A stretch of DNA of 64,000 bases from a virus (Duplodnaviria > Heunggongvirae > Uroviricota > Caudoviricetes). This document shows positions 1 through 8,307 of the stretch, piece after piece. Position 1 is the first letter of the stretch. Each line of letters starts with the position of its first letter. The stretch lies in the IMG/VR virus record IMGVR_UViG_2623620505_000001; one strand, written 5' to 3'. The notes under the pieces were generated by a model. It saw only the letters and a list, made by a program, of their open reading frames with translations. It searched no databases and had not been told where the DNA came from. The translations under genes were made by a program, and so were the position numbers.

Positions 1-84
1 GCGACTCGTTCATTAACCCGTTGTATCGGATTTTCCCTGTTACTCAGCAAATCCGCAGAAGTTACGTAATAAATCTCGCACAGG

Positions 85-696
85 ATGTGTCAGATGACGA
101 AAAATAAGTATGCAACGGTCGATTTTGACCAGGTTAATGAAAAGGGGCTGAAATCCCTTATCGCGGCGATCAATAAAACCGGTGTTACGGTAATTGAGGT
201 TGACTCCAGCAACCGCGCAACAACGAAAGATGGCGTTAAAGTTAAAACCGCAAAGCTGGTTCTTAACGACGGACAAATTCTTGCCATACAGGTAAACGAT
301 ACTGGCGATATATCGTCTGTGAGGCTGAATGGAAAAGCTATTCCTAACGCTCAGTCGCCGGATATCAAGACGCTTGGTACCGTCATGGGGCAAGCGGCCC
401 GCAAAAACTCCGCAAAATTCCAGAAATCACTGATCGCCAAAGCGAAACGTGTTGCCAATCCGGTAGACAAGAAACCGGCAGTAAAATCCAACTTTCAGCG
501 CCTGCAAGAGGCAAAACAGCGGAATGCTCAGGTGGTTGCCGCTTATAAATCAGCGCAGAACTCGGTGTCTTTCAATCAACAGCAGATCACTGATTTGCGG
601 GCGAAGCTGGATAAGGAGACAGGCCGACTCAATAACGAAAAGGCCCGAAATGGCGAACTCAAACGCCGTCTTAAGCAACTGAAAGCAGGAAATTAA
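85..696 (+). CDS. hdf: Hdf-like protein (homolog of DarA fragment), first visible gene of the Dar antirestriction operon
   Basis: 203-aa ORF with coiled-coil C-terminus; shares a KNSAKFQ-containing segment with the next ORF; stop is 1 nt before the next start; P1 darA-operon synteny. Confidence 0.6.
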   Translation: MCQMTKNKYATVDFDQVNEKGLKSLIAAINKTGVTVIEVDSSNRATTKDGVKVKTAKLVLNDGQILAIQVNDTGDISSVRLNGKAIPNAQSPDIKTLGTVMGQAARKNSAKFQKSLIAKAKRVANPVDKKPAVKSNFQRLQEAKQRNAQVVAAYKSAQNSVSFNQQQITDLRAKLDKETGRLNNEKARNGELKRRLKQLKAGN

Positions 697-697
697 C

Positions 698-2617
698 ATG
701 GAACAGTTCAATATCAATAAAGGGGTGACGATCAAGCCTGGGCTTGACGTGCTTCCCCCGCCAGTGACTGATGATGAATATCGCGCATTAATGGCCGGTG
801 AGGACCGCTATCTGATGACGGAATCCAACACCCTGGAGGAAATCGAGGCTACGTTCTTCTATGACACGCCGATCCACTGGTGTGCTACGGATTTACTGGA
901 GGCGATTAGTTCTACTCGTTTGCAGTTACACCGGACCATGCAGGCATTTGTCCGGGCATTGAACCAGAAGCTGAATGGTACCGGAATCTCTGCGGGGAGT
1001 GATAAAACGGGGGATGTGGCCCAGAGCGGCGCGCGCGCGATCGGCGGTGCTGAAATTGGCCGGGCACGTAACGTTAACGGGCTGCCGGTCCTGCCAGCCA
1101 TTATTCCGCTCAGTGATGGTCAGACTATCAGCATTCTGTTTCATAGCCCGACAGCGGAAAACCGGATCACCAATAGCGATACGCTGGTTGCTTTCCAGTT
1201 CTTACTGAATAAAAAAGACGTTACTCACACCGTTGCTCCGATGAGTGGACGTGATATGACGCTGGCGCAGGTCACCATGAAACTTGCCAACCTTGCAGAG
1301 AAAAACTCGGCAAAATTTCAGCGTGCGCAGAAGAAGAAAAAAGCCCTTGTTGATGAAATAACCCAACTACAGGCTGACAGTGACCAGAAAGAGGATGCCA
1401 TGAGCGACCTCGTGGATCAGGTGGCAGCGGTAGAAGGGCAGAAGGTAGATCTGGAGCAGAAAATTAACGCTGTTGCATCGGAAGCGGATTCTCTTTATGA
1501 AGAGAATGAGCGTTTGCAGACGGAGATTGATCAGCTCAATCGCACTGGTGGGCGCGATACCATTGCTCCTGCGGGGATGACTGGTGGACACTCTCGCGCG
1601 ATGACGGATCGCCTTGCCAGTATCAAAAATCGTATGCATATGAACGGGGAAGTGACGCTCAGTAATGGTGCATCAATGAAGCAATTCATTGAGGACGGCG
1701 AAGGGTATATCCAGTTAACCGATTCGGATGGCAGCGTGTACATGATCAAGGCTAAATCCATACAGGGTGTGGACATGGCAGATGCGATCGGCAAGCTGTT
1801 TAAAGCCTATAAAGCGGGTAATGTATCGGAATACCTGGTCCAACCAGAAGAACATAAACCGGAAAACGTCGAACCTGAACCAGCGGAGGATACCGGTAGC
1901 TCTTCGCCTGAACCAGAAGTCTCTGTAGGTGCATATCGATATGCCCTGCAAATGCGTCCGGCGGCCCCTGGCGCAATACCTGAAGGTAACAAAGCAATTC
2001 TGCCGCGCCCTGATGAAGGTGACCCGTATTATGAATATGCACGCTACGGCATTGCTACTTACGATACCCCGCTTTCTGATCAGCAAATGAGTGAGTACGA
2101 CCTGAAGTTATTGCCTCGCGAGGATTCTTTCGACTTCCTGGCGAAGACACTTACTAATGGTCCGTTTGGCAAATATGCACAAAAAGCTCTGGAGCTGGCC
2201 ACCAGCTCACCAGACGAGTTCCGCGTAATGCTGAAAACTCAGTTTCAAAAAACTTTCCCCAATATTGCGTTTCCGGGGGGCGCTGGCACCGAGAAAATGG
2301 TGCAGAGCATGATCAATGCATTGCAGGCCGAAGTCGGTGAGATTACTCAGCCAGAACCTGCCCCGGCACAGCCTGATGAAACGGTTAGCGAAGCAGATGC
2401 AGAGGCTAATAAAGCCATTGAATATCTCAATAACGTGATGGATATGCAAAGCACTGACATGGCGGAGATCCGTAACGCCCGGGGTAATGTCCGGGAAGCG
2501 ATTGCAGCCCTTCAGGCTGCCGGGCGTTTTGAGGAAAACGAAGAGCTGGTTAATGGCGCTGCTCGCCACTTGGCTGATCTGCTGGTAGCAATCCAGAAAG
2601 CGGGGGTAGCGGCATGA
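698..2617 (+). CDS. darA: DarA-like internal head / antirestriction protein
   Basis: 639-aa ORF; size and operon position match P1 DarA; internal coiled coil; coupled to flanking ORFs. Confidence 0.7.
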   Translation: MEQFNINKGVTIKPGLDVLPPPVTDDEYRALMAGEDRYLMTESNTLEEIEATFFYDTPIHWCATDLLEAISSTRLQLHRTMQAFVRALNQKLNGTGISAGSDKTGDVAQSGARAIGGAEIGRARNVNGLPVLPAIIPLSDGQTISILFHSPTAENRITNSDTLVAFQFLLNKKDVTHTVAPMSGRDMTLAQVTMKLANLAEKNSAKFQRAQKKKKALVDEITQLQADSDQKEDAMSDLVDQVAAVEGQKVDLEQKINAVASEADSLYEENERLQTEIDQLNRTGGRDTIAPAGMTGGHSRAMTDRLASIKNRMHMNGEVTLSNGASMKQFIEDGEGYIQLTDSDGSVYMIKAKSIQGVDMADAIGKLFKAYKAGNVSEYLVQPEEHKPENVEPEPAEDTGSSSPEPEVSVGAYRYALQMRPAAPGAIPEGNKAILPRPDEGDPYYEYARYGIATYDTPLSDQQMSEYDLKLLPREDSFDFLAKTLTNGPFGKYAQKALELATSSPDEFRVMLKTQFQKTFPNIAFPGGAGTEKMVQSMINALQAEVGEITQPEPAPAQPDETVSEADAEANKAIEYLNNVMDMQSTDMAEIRNARGNVREAIAALQAAGRFEENEELVNGAARHLADLLVAIQKAGVAA

Positions 2618-2979
2618 CACTATCAGCTATTGAGTTAATGGATCTCAGCGATAAGTTGGATGCTTTGATGTCCAAAGCGGCTACCGCGAGTGGCATGGAG
2701 TTGCTGGATATCAGCGATGAAATTGACCAGATCATGCAACAGATGGGGTACGGTGTGTCCGGTGGCAGTAGTGGCGAGGAAAAACAACCTTCGGTACATG
2801 ATGGTGTGCCAAAACTGGTTGCTGATTTCCTGGCTGATAAATTCGTCGATCAGAGCACCGATGCATTTATCGGTACCTTGCAGGATTTGAGTCAATATGT
2901 TGGCACATACATCGACCTGGACCAGGTTAAACAGCACACGGCGGCATGGATAGCCGCCAACATTAAAGAGGCAGCATAA
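2614..2979 (+). CDS. small protein downstream of darA (DdrA-like)
   Basis: 121-aa ORF; ATGA stop/start overlap with the darA-like ORF; synteny only. Confidence 0.5.
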   Translation: MTLSAIELMDLSDKLDALMSKAATASGMELLDISDEIDQIMQQMGYGVSGGSSGEEKQPSVHDGVPKLVADFLADKFVDQSTDAFIGTLQDLSQYVGTYIDLDQVKQHTAAWIAANIKEAA

Positions 2980-2991
2980 GGCGTAACAGGG

Positions 2992-5979
2992 ATGAGCTTA
3001 AGCGATCAGGTGGTAATGGCCACCAGCATAGAAACGCTGATCGAGCTGCTAAAGAACCTGCCCGGTTATGGGCGGGTTTCGTATGTGGTGACAGCGAAGG
3101 GAGACGAGGTAAAAACAGCGTTTGATATCGTCGATGCCTCAGCTCTTTTGGTATCCAATACTCTGGATGGGAAAATTAATCCTGACTATCCCCAGGAACT
3201 TCAGCCGCGCGACCGGACCCGCGCATCCAGCCTTCTTCAGGTTAACCAGATATCCAAAGATTTGCGGCCTGCTCAGCTTACTGATTCCGGTTTATCCAGC
3301 CATGGTGCGCCGATAATTGGTGAGGACAATGCCGTTGAGTCAGGTAATGGACGGACCATGGGGATCATCAAAGCCTATCAGGACGGCAATGCGGATCGGT
3401 ATCGTGAGTACCTGATTGAACATGCGACCGAATTCGGCATACCTCCTGAAAAGGTTGAATCAATGACGGCTCCGGTACTGGTGCGCCGCCGGTTAACTAA
3501 GGTTGACCGCGTTCAGTTTGCCAAGGACTCAAATATTTCTGATCTTCAGGAAATGGCAGCCAGTGAAAAAGCTTTTGTTGATGCCGACAGCATAACACCG
3601 GCGATGATGGCGCTTTTTAACCCGTCAGAAAGCGGAGATCTGCTTAGCCGCAGTAATGACGCGTTTATTCGCGGATTTATGACGCAAGTTGGTGCCACAC
3701 AGGCGGCTGGCCTTGTAATGGAAGATGGGCGACCAACGCGGCAACTTGTTGACCGTATACAAAACGCGATCTTTGCCAAGGCATATAAGGATGCGCGCCT
3801 GGTAAGGATGGTTGCAGAAGAACCTGATCCGGATATGCGTAATGTTCTGACGGCGCTTAATGCGGCAGCCAATGATTTTGTCCAGATGCAGGCTTTATCA
3901 GGAGAAGCGCACAAGCAGGCTGTGACAACTATTGTTGATGGCATTGAGACAGCGGATAGCCTCGATAAAAAGGCGCTGGCGGCATTGAAAGATGCGGTAG
4001 ACCTGGTAAGGCAATCGAAGGAGTCAGGCCAGCATATTACCGATGTTATTGCTCAGGGGGATATGTTCAGCGAAACGGCCCCGGAAGTGAAAGCACTCGC
4101 GTTGTTCATCGTCGCGAATAACCGTAGCGCGAAGCGTATGGCCACCGCCTTTAAGTTGATGGCTCAACGTATCAATGATGAGTTACAGCACCAGGGCCAG
4201 GCGCTGGGGGATATGTTTGGCGGTGGTGATGTGTCGTTACAGGATATCCTTCGCCAGGTGTCTCAGGAACTGGAAAACGAAGGCATGCAAGGGATATCCG
4301 GCGGTCTTTTCGAGTCCGTTTCCGGCGGTAGTTACAATGGTGTTGCTCCATATACCAGTTTGCTATTACATCGGGCATCCGGCATCAAAGACATTATTCA
4401 TCTGATCAGGCTGCTTTCCCGTACAGATCCCCAGGATGAACAGCTTGTACAAGTGCTTGCGCATTTTGTTCGAATGCCTGTTGCCGACGTGAAAAAATGG
4501 TGCCGATTATTCGGTATCAGCAATTCGTTACTTCGCGGCTTGTTAAATCACGCATCCTCCCTTGGGCGCGATGGCTTTGACGAGATAGCGCAGGCGATAA
4601 AAAACGGAGATATGCCACCAGCTATTGACTGGTTTTCCATTCGCCCAACCAGGGTGAAAGCATTCCTTAGCGCGGCGCATTCGGCATCACCATTGGCAGA
4701 AATGGTTCAGAGGTTGTCGCTCATATTCACAGACCATACCGCGTTGGGTGATCTGACTCTGGACGAGATGAAAGAAGCCTCCATTCAGTGGGCCGATCAA
4801 CAAAATGAGGTTAACTCTGACTTCTTGCCAGCATTCAGGAAGGCCGTTAGTAAAGCTGATGATGCCCGTGGAATTCTGAGGGCATTTAAGGCATTGCAAA
4901 GTCAGGTTAATAAACATGTCGGTGATATCGATGGGGTAACGGCGGAAGGCAGGGATATCCTTAAAGAGCACGGCATAACGCCAGAGTTTATTGATGAGAT
5001 CAGGACTGATATGCAGCGTGAGGTCGTATCGTCCCTGCAAATCGTAGCCAGAGCGTTGGCGGATGCTAATCCGAAGAGTGCGGCCATTGTTAACCGTGTT
5101 ATTGGTGATATTGAAGCATCGGAGGGCATGGGGGCGCTGAAACTCTTCCTTTCGCGAGCGTTTAATCCTAACGGCAATATTCTCCCCGGCATTATTGGTG
5201 AGGCTAAAAAGTATGTCAGCGAAGAAGAACTTGAGCATCTTGACCAACTACTTAAGCGATTCTCATATAACCCGCAGACACGCTGGCAAATGAATCAGCA
5301 AAGTATGGGTTCGGTCCACGAGAAAGTGTTATCTGCCATGAACAGTGCGATCGCCAACTCATCCGTATCTGAAGAAAAAGCTCTTGAGTGGGCCGACTCT
5401 TTTATCACGGAAGAAGTGGAAGAAGCCCGCGCTGGACAGAATGGTGGGATAGACCTGCGCAAGGAACTTGCTGATATTTATCGCCTGACCGGCGGTAAAA
5501 TTTCGACCTTATCAAAGGTGGTTCACCACCAGGGAAGGGCATATGCAAATATTAATGGTGTTGTTGCTGTCAATTTGAACGATGAAAATGCAAGTGCACT
5601 GTGGCACGAGCTGGGTCATCATCTTGAGTACAGTAACCCTGGTTTGTTAGAGAAAGCCCGGTCATTCCTGAAGGCCAATGTTGAAGGGGATAAGCCATCT
5701 TTCGTTAATATCGGTGGGCGTGGCAAGCCTGAATGGTGCTTCAGATCTCGATTGAGTAATATTTATATGGCGAAGGTATACCCGCCAGCCTCAGTAAGTA
5801 ACACCGGGAAAATTCGGCAGAAATCACCGACTATTTCCAAAACGTCAGCAACGGAAGTATTCTCTATGGCTCTTCAGTTGTATCATGACAAAGAGGCCGC
5901 TGCCGCATCACTGATGAATGGTGACGGATTGCTGGAACTGTTATTAGGTGTGGCAAAGGAGCTAAATAATGCAGATTAA
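2992..5979 (+). CDS. large Dar-operon protein (DdrB-like) with HExxH zincin-like motif
   Basis: 995-aa ORF; motif WHELGHHLEY near the C-terminus; synteny with the P1 dar operon. Confidence 0.55.
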   Translation: MSLSDQVVMATSIETLIELLKNLPGYGRVSYVVTAKGDEVKTAFDIVDASALLVSNTLDGKINPDYPQELQPRDRTRASSLLQVNQISKDLRPAQLTDSGLSSHGAPIIGEDNAVESGNGRTMGIIKAYQDGNADRYREYLIEHATEFGIPPEKVESMTAPVLVRRRLTKVDRVQFAKDSNISDLQEMAASEKAFVDADSITPAMMALFNPSESGDLLSRSNDAFIRGFMTQVGATQAAGLVMEDGRPTRQLVDRIQNAIFAKAYKDARLVRMVAEEPDPDMRNVLTALNAAANDFVQMQALSGEAHKQAVTTIVDGIETADSLDKKALAALKDAVDLVRQSKESGQHITDVIAQGDMFSETAPEVKALALFIVANNRSAKRMATAFKLMAQRINDELQHQGQALGDMFGGGDVSLQDILRQVSQELENEGMQGISGGLFESVSGGSYNGVAPYTSLLLHRASGIKDIIHLIRLLSRTDPQDEQLVQVLAHFVRMPVADVKKWCRLFGISNSLLRGLLNHASSLGRDGFDEIAQAIKNGDMPPAIDWFSIRPTRVKAFLSAAHSASPLAEMVQRLSLIFTDHTALGDLTLDEMKEASIQWADQQNEVNSDFLPAFRKAVSKADDARGILRAFKALQSQVNKHVGDIDGVTAEGRDILKEHGITPEFIDEIRTDMQREVVSSLQIVARALADANPKSAAIVNRVIGDIEASEGMGALKLFLSRAFNPNGNILPGIIGEAKKYVSEEELEHLDQLLKRFSYNPQTRWQMNQQSMGSVHEKVLSAMNSAIANSSVSEEKALEWADSFITEEVEEARAGQNGGIDLRKELADIYRLTGGKISTLSKVVHHQGRAYANINGVVAVNLNDENASALWHELGHHLEYSNPGLLEKARSFLKANVEGDKPSFVNIGGRGKPEWCFRSRLSNIYMAKVYPPASVSNTGKIRQKSPTISKTSATEVFSMALQLYHDKEAAAASLMNGDGLLELLLGVAKELNNAD

Positions 5980-6280
5980 AATCGCAGCGCCATTAGGCGG
6001 AGATGCCATTATCGAATTTGATGATAATGAAGAAGTTTCCGGGCGTTTAAGCATTATCTCCGGTGACATTACCGAGGACATGATCGCTGAAGCCATAGCT
6101 GGGGCAAATCCCAATAGCTATATGGGATTCGTTAACACCCTTGATGCTCCCGCAAGTGATGTTCTCCGAACGCTGCATCTTTACGCTGGCTGGTTTGTTG
6201 ATTGGCCAGCAGTAGATGGTGGCGATGAGGACGACGACGACGATGATTTTGGTGATCATGTAGACCAGATCGTATATTGA
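5969..6280 (+). CDS. small acidic protein with poly-Asp C-terminal tail
   Basis: 103-aa ORF overlapping the end of the previous gene; C-terminus DGGDEDDDDDDFGD; followed by a terminator. Confidence 0.5.
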   Translation: MQIKIAAPLGGDAIIEFDDNEEVSGRLSIISGDITEDMIAEAIAGANPNSYMGFVNTLDAPASDVLRTLHLYAGWFVDWPAVDGGDEDDDDDDFGDHVDQIVY

Positions 6281-6282
6281 AG

Positions 6283-6308
6283 AAATCCCGCCAATTGGCG
6301 GGATTTTT
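6283..6308 (+). terminator. rho-independent terminator between convergent operons
   Basis: aaatcccgcc-aatt-ggcgggattt hairpin followed by a T-run. Confidence 0.75.
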
Positions 6309-6311
6309 ACC

Positions 6312-7406
6312 TCACGAGAAACTCTTTTCTGATGTCAGCCAACAGTGCTCGTGCATATCTCTTGGTGGTTTTTCGACAAATGCCTCTTCAGCCACATCCT
6401 GCCAGGGGATTTGTTTAGCCCATTCAGTTATAGCGTTATGGTTTGCCGAGAATAACGGTATTGTATAGGCCTTCAGCCAGTCTAATGTGCTGGAGTTGTG
6501 TTTTTGAGCGTGATGTTTCGCATGGTGTTTGGCGATCACGATCGTAGGCACTACCCATTTACTACCGTCAGTCATTGTGAAGTGCATATTACGGGGAACA
6601 GATGACTTTTCCATCAACTCCCGAATCCCTGGGAATTTCCCCAAGATCAATCGGCGATATTCATCGCTATTGCGCCCACCAAACTCTTTGGCTTTGAATT
6701 CAAGATATGCTTCAGAAACGAGAGGTGAATCCTCTGTGTTTAGAGTTATCGCCGTGAAAAAACCAGCAGGATTGTTTTTACTATGGGCCAACCGGTGATG
6801 CGAATCATAAAAGTACCCTTTCTCGCGTTCCGATGGTTTCGACAGCAACAGCAGGCGCGAGTCATAATTGGTTAAATTGCCAGTTATCACTGCATGAGCG
6901 CGATCGCTGATTTCCGCCGAGTTAATAACGATGAAAAGATCGTGCGGTCCAGTAAAACCAGCCAGAGACTCTTCGTTATTCAGACAATAGGTTATATAGA
7001 CGCATCCCCATGTTTCACTGATATGCACCAACCCTTTGTCAGGGTGTATTCTGAAATAATTGCCAAGAAAAGTGTGTTTTTGGGTAACTCGCTCCCAATA
7101 ACGGAACATATAGTCAATTATTGTTTTTCGACAATCGTTAATCGCAGGAGAAACAACCACTGTACGGGAACACGAATACAGTATTGTTTGCAGGATGCTA
7201 ATCACTGCCACAATAGAGGTTTCCCCAATACCATGTGGTGTGGTGGCAGTGATTTTGGCTCCGGTGTTCTTTATCGCGTTAATAATTTTTGCTTGATGAG
7301 GTGTTAACTCAATATCAAGCAACTCTTTTGCTGCCAGTTCCCAATTGTCTTTATACCGTTCTATCAGTGCTAACCAGGCAGATTCATTCTGTATACGATT
7401 AATCAC
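6312..7406 (-). CDS. PacB-like protein: paralog of the terminase large subunit ATPase domain, lacking the C-terminal part
   Basis: 364 aa; clear similarity to PacB at 26514..27998 (GYFYDSHHRLA vs [11 protein letters not shown]; TAITLNTEDSPLVS vs [14 protein letters not shown]; Walker-like GIGETS vs GTGKSD). Confidence 0.7.
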   Translation of the reverse strand: MINRIQNESAWLALIERYKDNWELAAKELLDIELTPHQAKIINAIKNTGAKITATTPHGIGETSIVAVISILQTILYSCSRTVVVSPAINDCRKTIIDYMFRYWERVTQKHTFLGNYFRIHPDKGLVHISETWGCVYITYCLNNEESLAGFTGPHDLFIVINSAEISDRAHAVITGNLTNYDSRLLLLSKPSEREKGYFYDSHHRLAHSKNNPAGFFTAITLNTEDSPLVSEAYLEFKAKEFGGRNSDEYRRLILGKFPGIRELMEKSSVPRNMHFTMTDGSKWVVPTIVIAKHHAKHHAQKHNSSTLDWLKAYTIPLFSANHNAITEWAKQIPWQDVAEEAFVEKPPRDMHEHCWLTSEKSFS

Positions 7407-8307
7407 TTTCCACCTCTTCCGTGGTGTTTTCTTGCAGTTCTGTTAATGCAGCACGACATAGGTTCCGGGCATTGGCTATAGCCACACTTTTGACTTCATC
7501 CGTCATCGTGCAGGTAATGTACTGATCGAGTTCTTCAGCGCGGATGATGCTTTTGCCAATCAGAAACTGTATTTGCCATAGCAGATCGGCATCCATAATC
7601 AGAATTTCTGCCGGGCCTTCAGGGCCAGCCGGGAAGGAAACATAAGACTGTTTGCCCAGGCCGACAACTCGACAACTTGCTTCAAGAATTGCGCGCTTGA
7701 GGTCTGACTTTATAACGGAAACAGGTTGATTTTCACCAGTGATTACGCCGTTGACATGGAAAGGCATGTAGCTTGAAATACGCTCTACTTTCCACACGCC
7801 AGCAAGCGATCCTTCATGCAGCACAATGGGGGTAACCGCGAGTTTCATCTCACCATATAACTGCTGGCAGATAGCTGGATTGCTGAATACATCTAAAGGC
7901 TCACATTCAAACAGCGGCGCAATCTGCATGAGGTCCATCATGGTCATCCCTGGGGTACGAGCAGTAATGAATTTGCGCATACCAGTATCCATTGCGCTCC
8001 AGATTGCTACACCATGCTTTTTGCTCACTTCTTCAGTAAAGCCAAGGTGGCACATGATGGTTTTTTCGATAGCCAGATCAGAGATAGAAACCTTTTCGCC
8101 AGGTACTCCATCATTATTGATGGTCACTTCGACACTCTGGCCATTACGTAGGCGGTATTGAATGGTTTTAGTATTTTGTGCTGTCATAGTCTTTTCTCTG
8201 CTTAAAAACTGATGTATTGCGTCTTCAGGTGGGTTAGGAATGTTTTCCCACCAGCGAAAGCAATATCTCGTGGTGTTCTGTTCGTTAAAAACGCGTGCCA
8301 TTGCCAA
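7399..8307 (-). CDS. hypothetical protein
   Basis: 302-aa ORF, same strand and overlapping start of the PacB-like gene. Confidence 0.5.
   Translation of the reverse strand: MAMARVFNEQNTTRYCFRWWENIPNPPEDAIHQFLSREKTMTAQNTKTIQYRLRNGQSVEVTINNDGVPGEKVSISDLAIEKTIMCHLGFTEEVSKKHGVAIWSAMDTGMRKFITARTPGMTMMDLMQIAPLFECEPLDVFSNPAICQQLYGEMKLAVTPIVLHEGSLAGVWKVERISSYMPFHVNGVITGENQPVSVIKSDLKRAILEASCRVVGLGKQSYVSFPAGPEGPAEILIMDADLLWQIQFLIGKSIIRAEELDQYITCTMTDEVKSVAIANARNLCRAALTELQENTTEEVESD

Follow-up and report, generated by a model that had tools for sequence, protein, structure and literature searches.

The Dar antirestriction system of phage P1 has been studied since 1987. In P1, the basic protein Hdf and the acidic protein DarA, which have in common a DarA_N domain that leads into a long helix, pair via a parallel helix bundle, and cryo-EM published in 2026 resolved 55 such pairs docked on the inner capsid surface at penton–hexon junctions, where they touch the packaged DNA (PMC12810830). 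DarA comprises a propeptide (approximately residues 1–69, cut off by the prohead protease), DarA_N (residues 66–204), a coiled-coil helix, a penton-binding domain, and a tail bearing DarA_C (PMC12810830). The Hdf–DarA platform favors heads of normal size and is needed before DdrA, DdrB, Ulx, and DarB can be loaded (PMC12810830). Dar proteins leave the head with the DNA and protect only the DNA of that head, in cis, from type I restriction; protection from the EcoA/StySA family depends on DarA, and that from EcoB/EcoK has been linked to DarB, Ulx, and DdrB (PMC12810830, PMC12707154). Because the loading of certain Dar proteins depends on others, the phenotypes of dar mutants are confounded (review PMC12707154).

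The stretch of DNA analyzed here (64 kb, hereafter the window) is, by its sequence, a P1-like plasmid prophage with 98% DNA identity to phage P1, in which Hdf, DarA, DdrA, DdrB, and Hxr are correctly named and all already known. Across bases 1–6278, DNA identity to reference P1 is 98.1%, and 19 phage records cover at least 80% of this query. An earlier note had described four genes (203, 639, 121, and 995 aa) plus a small acidic ORF, and all five ORFs lie exactly at the positions given there. Its assignment to the P1 hdf-darA-ddrA-ddrB arrangement is borne out by identical gene order and by 95.9 to 98.5% protein identity, the decisive opposite of the lack of significant similarity to P1 dar products against which that assignment had been set. 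Individually, identity to the P1 proteins is 98.5% for Hdf, 98.0% for DarA, 95.9% for DdrA, and 98.4% for DdrB, all over full length, and 97.1% for Hxr, with between 3 and 16 residues substituted in each of these five dar-operon products. As in the P1 annotation, hdf-darA-ddrA-ddrB-hxr lie on one strand, 3′ of lydB, and gene order, lengths, overlaps, and terminator are as in the P1 darA operon (AF234172/NC_005856; protein identity 96–98.5%). PHROG families match for Hdf, DarA, DdrA, and DdrB, and those of Hdf, DdrA, and Ulx carry antirestriction descriptions. The P1 features under the downstream match of the window include prt (portal) and pro (prohead protease). We found no sequence evidence in the window contrary to this identity, and the block is almost certainly the darA operon of a P1-like (Punavirus) plasmid prophage, gene-for-gene orthologous to that of P1. 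The two copies differ downstream of hxr, where reference P1 has isaB and IS1 and the window has 1.1 kb of sequence containing an ORF of 364 aa, and in the Hxr tail, which has one Asp fewer in reference P1.

All five frames are full length and intact, with 0 frameshifts and 0 premature stops, which bears on whether the operon might be a degenerating leftover, no longer functional, of a defective plasmid prophage. Cryptic members are common among P1-like plasmids, and in SJ46, RCS47, and vB_EcoM-813R1 an IS200/IS605 transposase lies inside the block, so that the match falls into 2 pieces. The copy in the window, however, has no IS and has kept its start contexts and terminator as well as its frames, and we regard decay as very improbable. 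The P1-orthologous operon appears intact over the part that the window covers, but it is not complete, as the earlier note had called it. At the 5′ end, the P1 annotation places the late promoter LPdar, lydA, and lydB upstream of hdf, and LPdar, lydA, and most of lydB fall before base 1 of the window. What is present of lydB, the second gene of the operon, is its 3′ end (positions 1–107, + strand), cut at the window edge; the frame-3 translation of these last 35 codons equals the P1 LydB C terminus with one substitution. A search of the + strand over positions 1–6600 found no sigma-70-like promoter.

Genes within the operon are tightly packed. The hdf stop and the darA start are 1 nt apart, darA and ddrA overlap by ATGA, ddrA and ddrB are separated by a spacer of 12 nt, and ddrB shares its last 11 nt with hxr, whose ATG is preceded at 7 nt by an AAGGAG. 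From this junction spacing, translational coupling of the dar genes is a fair reading. The operon ends in a terminator hairpin at 6281–6308 (12-bp stem, −19.3 kcal/mol, z = −6.0 versus shuffles, U-run at the 3′ side), which was missed by a consensus terminator scan and found by direct folding; the genes on its two sides converge on it, so it may act bidirectionally. By analogy with P1, a single transcript made late in lytic growth would run from the Lpa-dependent promoter LPdar through lydA, lydB, hdf, darA, ddrA, ddrB, and hxr to this hairpin, and the tight spacing and overlap of the frames would link translation of the operon genes.

The first two complete genes encode the paired head proteins. 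Hdf (85–696, + strand, 203 aa) is basic, with a pI of 10.3, and consists of DarA_N (Pfam E 1.5e-21, residues 13–109) and a C-terminal helix; it matches phrog_1620 (“Hdf-like antirestriction”) and PDB 9ukm_H (E 9.5e-122). The true start of hdf is probably the ATG at 94, giving 200 aa: an AGGA lies 8 nt ahead of that codon but abuts the ATG at 85, and newer P1 records annotate hdf at 603 nt. DarA (698–2617, + strand, 639 aa) has Pfam matches to DarA_C (E 5.7e-17) as well as to DarA_N (E 3.8e-42), scores 1089 bits against NCBIfam equivalog model NF052326 (“antirestriction phage head protein DarA,” cut-off 350), and is matched by PDB 9ukm_I; both head proteins are matched over their full length in the solved structures 9ukm and 9vz0.

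The name Hdf stands for “homolog of DarA fragment,” and the earlier note had proposed internal paralogy of these two proteins. Their pairwise BLASTP alignment (E 8e-4, 31% over 90 aa) and the presence of DarA_N in both confirm from sequence that this paralogy is real. The Pfam DarA_N model (PF18788) scores 76.9 bits in Hdf and 143.4 bits in DarA, in each case over positions 2–122 of 122 and far over the gathering score of 27 bits, and local alignment scores exceed those of shuffled sequences for the full proteins (z = 5.4) and for their N-terminal parts (z = 5.7). The KNSAKFQ segment that the earlier note had placed next to coiled coils in both proteins is indeed shared (Hdf residue 107, DarA residue 202), as is the N-domain, but similarity does not extend to the coiled-coil parts: taken by themselves, the helical segments show no significant sequence similarity (z = 0.9 versus shuffles), and the equivalence of these domains is structural only. 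No stretch of the DarA_N domain is better conserved than the KNSAKFQ motif. A shared 7-mer was reached in 1/2000 shuffles and two shared 6-mers in 0/2000. The weak score of the helices might suggest a chance or compositional match between coiled-coil-rich proteins, and the identical heptapeptide, encoded by DNA identical at 19/21 nt, a recent local gene conversion around KNSAKFQ. We give either explanation next to no credence, given the DarA_N bit scores and the N-domain z-score above. DNA identity, moreover, is confined to the 21 nt of the motif, which rules out recent hdf–darA conversion, and the Hdf and DarA copies remain colinear across three phage lineages, including phages with proteins only 33–39% identical; one Phe never varies, and an [N/G][S/A]xxF[Q/K]K motif stands in the same place. 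Paralogy of Hdf and DarA accordingly stands, and it was described in 2017, when DarA_N was defined as the only domain of Hdf and the N-terminal one of DarA (Iyer et al. 2017, PMC5512222). The operon identity, the DarA_N paralogy, and the DarA–Hdf capsid complex are thus all already known.

DdrA (2614–2979, + strand, 121 aa) is a small acidic protein (pI 4.1) that has been detected in P1 virions (PMC9024508); it matches phrog_1855 (“DdrA-like anti-restriction protein,” E 1.2e-57) and no Pfam family. DdrB (2992–5979, + strand, 995 aa) carries an N-terminal DdrB-type ParB domain (residues 36–167; Pfam ddrB-ParB, E 1.8e-39) and a C-terminal HExxH motif. The motif reads HELGH at residues 872–876 and HEIGH in two homologs that are 43–44% identical; no Pfam peptidase family matched at E ≤ 0.1, and no solved structural relative of the protein was found. 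DdrB is reportedly processed to approximately 76 kDa. The C terminus is a putative metallopeptidase on the assignment of Iyer et al. (2017, PMC5512222), who described DdrB as a ParB-superfamily domain followed by a zincin-like metallopeptidase (MPTase). DarA-N, DdrB-ParB, and zincin-like MPTase domains also make up the polyvalent, virion-delivered effector proteins of that study, but there they are fused in one giant polypeptide, whereas in the window they are spread over separate coupled genes. Within ddrB, an ORF on the opposite strand (iddB, 3546–3944) was rejected as a candidate gene: in two divergent loci (L084 and L087, below) this antisense frame is open over just part of its length and ends elsewhere, and iddB seems to be a shadow ORF of ddrB and not a conserved gene.

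The remaining virion Dar proteins are encoded in a separate darB-ulx unit, as in reference P1. The earlier note had placed DarB at 12695–19462, and the + strand ORF there encodes 2255 aa with 99.2% identity to P1 DarB, a virion methyltransferase/helicase protein, at a position that matches the P1 map. Ulx (19496–19936, + strand, 146 aa) is 100% identical to the P1 virion protein and matches phrog_1629 (“Ulx-like anti-restriction”); the P1 virion table lists it as aiding DarB incorporation (PMC9024508). The statement that the window encodes the full set of capsid-packaged antirestriction proteins holds for all six published virion Dar proteins, but only because Ulx, which the earlier list left out, is also present.

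The P1 mechanism is carried over to the window because its proteins are 96–100% identical to those of P1. The Dar proteins of the window would be packaged, co-injected, and protective as in P1, with DarA cut by the prohead protease. Which of them would do the shielding is a separate matter. The block might chiefly be a capsid-assembly or head-size module in which Hdf and DarA act as scaffold or cement, leaving antirestriction to the cargo proteins DdrA, DdrB, DarB, and Ulx. In P1, deletion of hdf or darA reduces normal-size heads from approximately 80% to approximately 15% and keeps every other Dar protein out, and the pairs at penton–hexon junctions stabilize the shell (PMC12810830); the loading dependencies noted above, moreover, confound the mutant phenotypes (PMC12707154). 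However, the Hdf–DarA complex presents a positively charged surface that contacts DNA, and the pairs exit the head with the DNA (PMC12810830), and all of the genes are dispensable on non-restricting hosts. We therefore treat the assembly role as a tentative and somewhat unlikely account of the block; it is in any case compatible with the antirestriction reading, since it only reassigns which protein shields.

The last gene, hxr (5969–6280, + strand, 103 aa, with a poly-Asp tail), corresponds to the small acidic ORF of the earlier note, and its product has a pI of 4.05, with 24 D+E against 3 K+R. Hxr has been labeled an Xre-like repressor since 2004. No Pfam or NCBIfam family matched Hxr, and neither profiles nor the predicted fold revealed an Xre-like/HTH_3 all-helical DNA-binding domain. 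An AF2 model built with six distant homologs (pLDDT 75) has an alpha+beta core, for which no fold match was found; a model built on 7 near-identical sequences, at pLDDT 45, was of no use. The family consists of small proteins (96–103 aa) whose core is conserved (VLR, W..WP) and whose tail is acidic. In L084 and L087, where Dar proteins are only 33–44% identical to those of the window, hxr occupies the same place with the same 11-nt ddrB overlap. No relative of the distant Hxr family was found among 185,579 species-representative genomes scanned, and the family seems confined to P1-like elements. Three long proteins with repeated matches to Hxr residues 23–49 (P0021, P0026, and P0027) were set aside as compositional, with many GDVTGDG...-type repeats that we read as FG-GAP/VCBS-like.

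Because Hxr has no repressor features and its coupling to ddrB is conserved, it could be an unrecognized Dar component or helper (for example a DdrB partner, a chaperone, or an acidic anti-restriction factor) instead of an Xre-like repressor, a proposal that we hold possible but rather doubtful. Hxr is absent from the P1 virion proteome (PMC9024508). This absence is weak evidence: trypsin would yield Hxr peptides of 4, 22, 41, and 36 residues, of which probably only one would be easily detected, too few for the two-peptide cut-off that was applied. A role in the Dar module would be mildly new, in that the textbook label would perhaps be wrong and the module perhaps one member larger.

The operon is present in 489/5,426 complete E. 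coli genomes (approximately 9%), and 509/522 places are on plasmids. Among P1-like plasmid prophages of Enterobacteriaceae, P7, SJ46, RCS47, JL22, phi456, and E. coli plasmids such as NZ_CP065205 carry the same operon at 98–99.9% DNA identity. Most dar-operon genes in RefSeq records are labeled “hypothetical protein,” and the practical value of the present analysis is annotation, in that the dar genes of the window can be labeled confidently. Far more divergent relatives occur in L084 and L087, IMG/VR contigs of uncultivated P1-like phages, which share with the window the hdf-darA-ddrA-ddrB-hxr order and the HExxH motif. Their Hdf copies have RGATAFQK or KGASSFQK in place of KNSAKFQK, and L084 has ssb and two reverse-strand ORFs between ddrA and ddrB. 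Across P1-like prophages, the cargo beside hxr varies, for example ompD in a P7-like mcr-1 plasmid.

The five close-packed ORFs at 85–6280 on the plus strand (203, 639, 121, 995, and 103 aa) are the textbook Dar system of an ordinary P1-like plasmid prophage, rightly recognized in an earlier note and already known. Megablast of window 1–6500 against 50,697 phage records matched only P1-like phages, and reference P1 (AF234172 / NC_005856) is 98.1% identical to window 1–6278. The P1 annotation supplies the names hdf, darA, ddrA, ddrB, and hxr, together with iddB for an antisense ORF within ddrB; immediately upstream it shows lydA and lydB along with the late promoter LPdar. The earlier naming of the first four genes held, with 95.9–98.5% protein identity to the P1 products in global alignment (Hdf 98.5%, DarA 98.0%, DdrA 95.9%, DdrB 98.4%); Hxr is 97.1% identical. 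Among complete Escherichia coli genomes, 489/5,426 carry the 6.2-kb dar block, 509/522 of its places are on plasmids, and copies reach 99.9% identity to the window.

The ORF positions and sizes first listed proved exact on an ORF check. A 1-nt gap separates hdf from darA, darA and ddrA overlap in ATGA, a 12-nt spacer precedes ddrB, and ddrB overlaps hxr by 11 nt, preceded by AAGGAG. After the final stop codon, between convergent genes, lies a strong hairpin at 6281–6308 (folding, −19.3 kcal/mol, z = −6). The operon had been called complete, and hdf to hxr are indeed all present, but its 5′ end is cut: bases 1–107 code for the final 35 LydB residues, so the window starts inside lydB, leaving both promoter and first gene out of view. 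hdf has in-frame ATGs at 85 and 94, with AGGA abutting the first and 8 nt ahead of the second; a 200-aa Hdf agrees with more recent P1 records as well as with its PHROG profile, and 203 aa is given in the 2004 annotation and PDB entry. iddB (3546–3944, minus strand) is open in the window and is probably a shadow ORF rather than a real gene, because in divergent homologs the antisense frame is only partly open and has different ends.

Internal paralogy between Hdf and DarA, also proposed earlier, is borne out and already published: DarA-N, the DarA N-terminal domain, is the sole domain of Hdf (Iyer et al. 2017, PMC5512222). Pfam DarA_N matches Hdf residues 13–109 (E 1.5e-21) and DarA residues 66–204 (E 3.8e-42), and BLASTP aligns 90 residues at 31% identity (E 8e-4), ending at a shared KNSAKFQ, which sits at the C-terminal edge of the domain. 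This heptapeptide had been placed in a shared segment next to coiled coils; against 1000 shuffles, local scores support similarity of the full proteins (z = 5.4) and N-terminal parts (z = 5.7) but not of the helical parts (z = 0.9). The motif-coding DNA is identical at 19/21 nt in hdf and darA, and identity ends with the heptapeptide codons, which rules out recent gene conversion. In two divergent P1-like contigs (33–39% protein identity), Hdf and DarA are colinear through N-domain and helix, with DarA RNSAKF[QK]K, Hdf RGATAFQK or KGASSFQK, and an invariant Phe; thus, as judged from these sequences, the motif is a family feature and the exact Hdf/DarA identity is specific to the P1 lineage.

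The mechanism is transferred from the P1 literature on near-identity of the proteins. In cryo-EM of P1, 55 DarA–Hdf pairs line the inside of the capsid at penton–hexon junctions, each held together by a charge-complementary bundle of parallel helices and contacting DNA with a positively charged face; the pairs are missing after DNA ejection, and the prohead protease Pro is thought to remove DarA residues 1–69 (PMC12810830). Both proteins are contained in PDB entries 9ukm and 9vz0. The charge pattern is kept here (Hdf pI 10.3, DarA helix segment net acidic), and annotated features under the downstream P1 match include Prt and Pro. According to the cryo-EM report, deletion of hdf or darA excludes all other Dar proteins from P1 and lowers normal-size heads from ~80% to ~15% (PMC12810830). 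The proteins identified in P1 virions include DdrA, DdrB, Ulx, and DarB (PMC9024508), and protection acts only in cis, on DNA from the same head (PMC12707154). All dar genes are dispensable in a nonrestricting host. By analogy, the window proteins would line the capsid, load cargo, and protect packaged DNA. DarB lies where it had been reported (12695–19462, 2255 aa, 99.2% identity to P1), followed by ulx (19496–19936, 146 aa, 100%) and lxc. DdrB has a DdrB-type ParB domain in its N-terminal part (Pfam) and carries HELGH at residues 872–876, kept in distant homologs and proposed to drive autoprocessing (Iyer et al. 2017, PMC5512222). ddrA contains a short internal repeat (2629–2652 and 2695–2718; IELMDLSD(K)LD / MELLDISD(E)ID), its copies 22 residues apart with 83% DNA identity.

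The small acidic ORF of the earlier note is hxr (5969–6280), which the P1 annotation calls "possible repressor; homolog of Xre." We found no support for this label: Pfam (even at E ≤ 10) and NCBIfam gave no match, and neither profile nor predicted fold shows an HTH. The structure model, distant homologs included (mean pLDDT 75, pTM 0.62), predicts a core in which three strands are followed by a helix, two short bridges, and a second helix, with a disordered poly-Asp tail beyond it. The family is small (96–103 aa, conserved VLR and W..WP, acidic tail; one member a tandem duplicate) and gave no match in a scan of species-representative genomes. In L084 and L087, loci of divergent uncultivated P1-like phages whose Dar proteins are only 33–44% identical, hxr occupies the same place (8001–8294) with the same 11-nt ddrB overlap. 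The P1 virion proteome paper does not mention Hxr (PMC9024508); trypsin would yield peptides of 4, 22, 41, and 36 residues, of which probably one is readily detectable, under that study's two-peptide cut-off, so this absence is weak evidence. Hxr may be an unrecognized member of the Dar module, a lead rather than a result.

In several close relatives, among them SJ46, RCS47, and vB_EcoM-813R1, the dar block contains an IS200/IS605 transposase (insQ) and therefore matches in two pieces that span ~7.6–7.8 kb for a 6.3–6.5 kb query; this insertion is not present in the window block. In L084, ddrA and ddrB are separated by an insertion (3365–4834) that comprises an SSB-like 176-aa ORF and, on the reverse strand, ORFs of 205 and 100 aa, which shows that the operon tolerates insertions at this junction. 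Where the window has a 1.1-kb segment (6281–7398) absent from P1, reference P1 has isaB and IS1. The 364-aa ORF there (6312–7406, minus strand) matches phrog_5902, with weak similarity to terminase large subunit, and has no Pfam or PADLOC match; since ompD occupies the same slot in a P7-like mcr-1 plasmid, the interval from hxr to ssb/isaA seems to be a site of variable cargo. Just past lxc, in a low-GC stretch (0.41), a 379-aa ORF (20219–21358, minus strand) matches the PADLOC candidate defense family PDC-S33 (E 5e-87); in reference P1 the region adjoining lxc holds the EcoP1I mod/res genes, and the ORF looks like swapped defense cargo.
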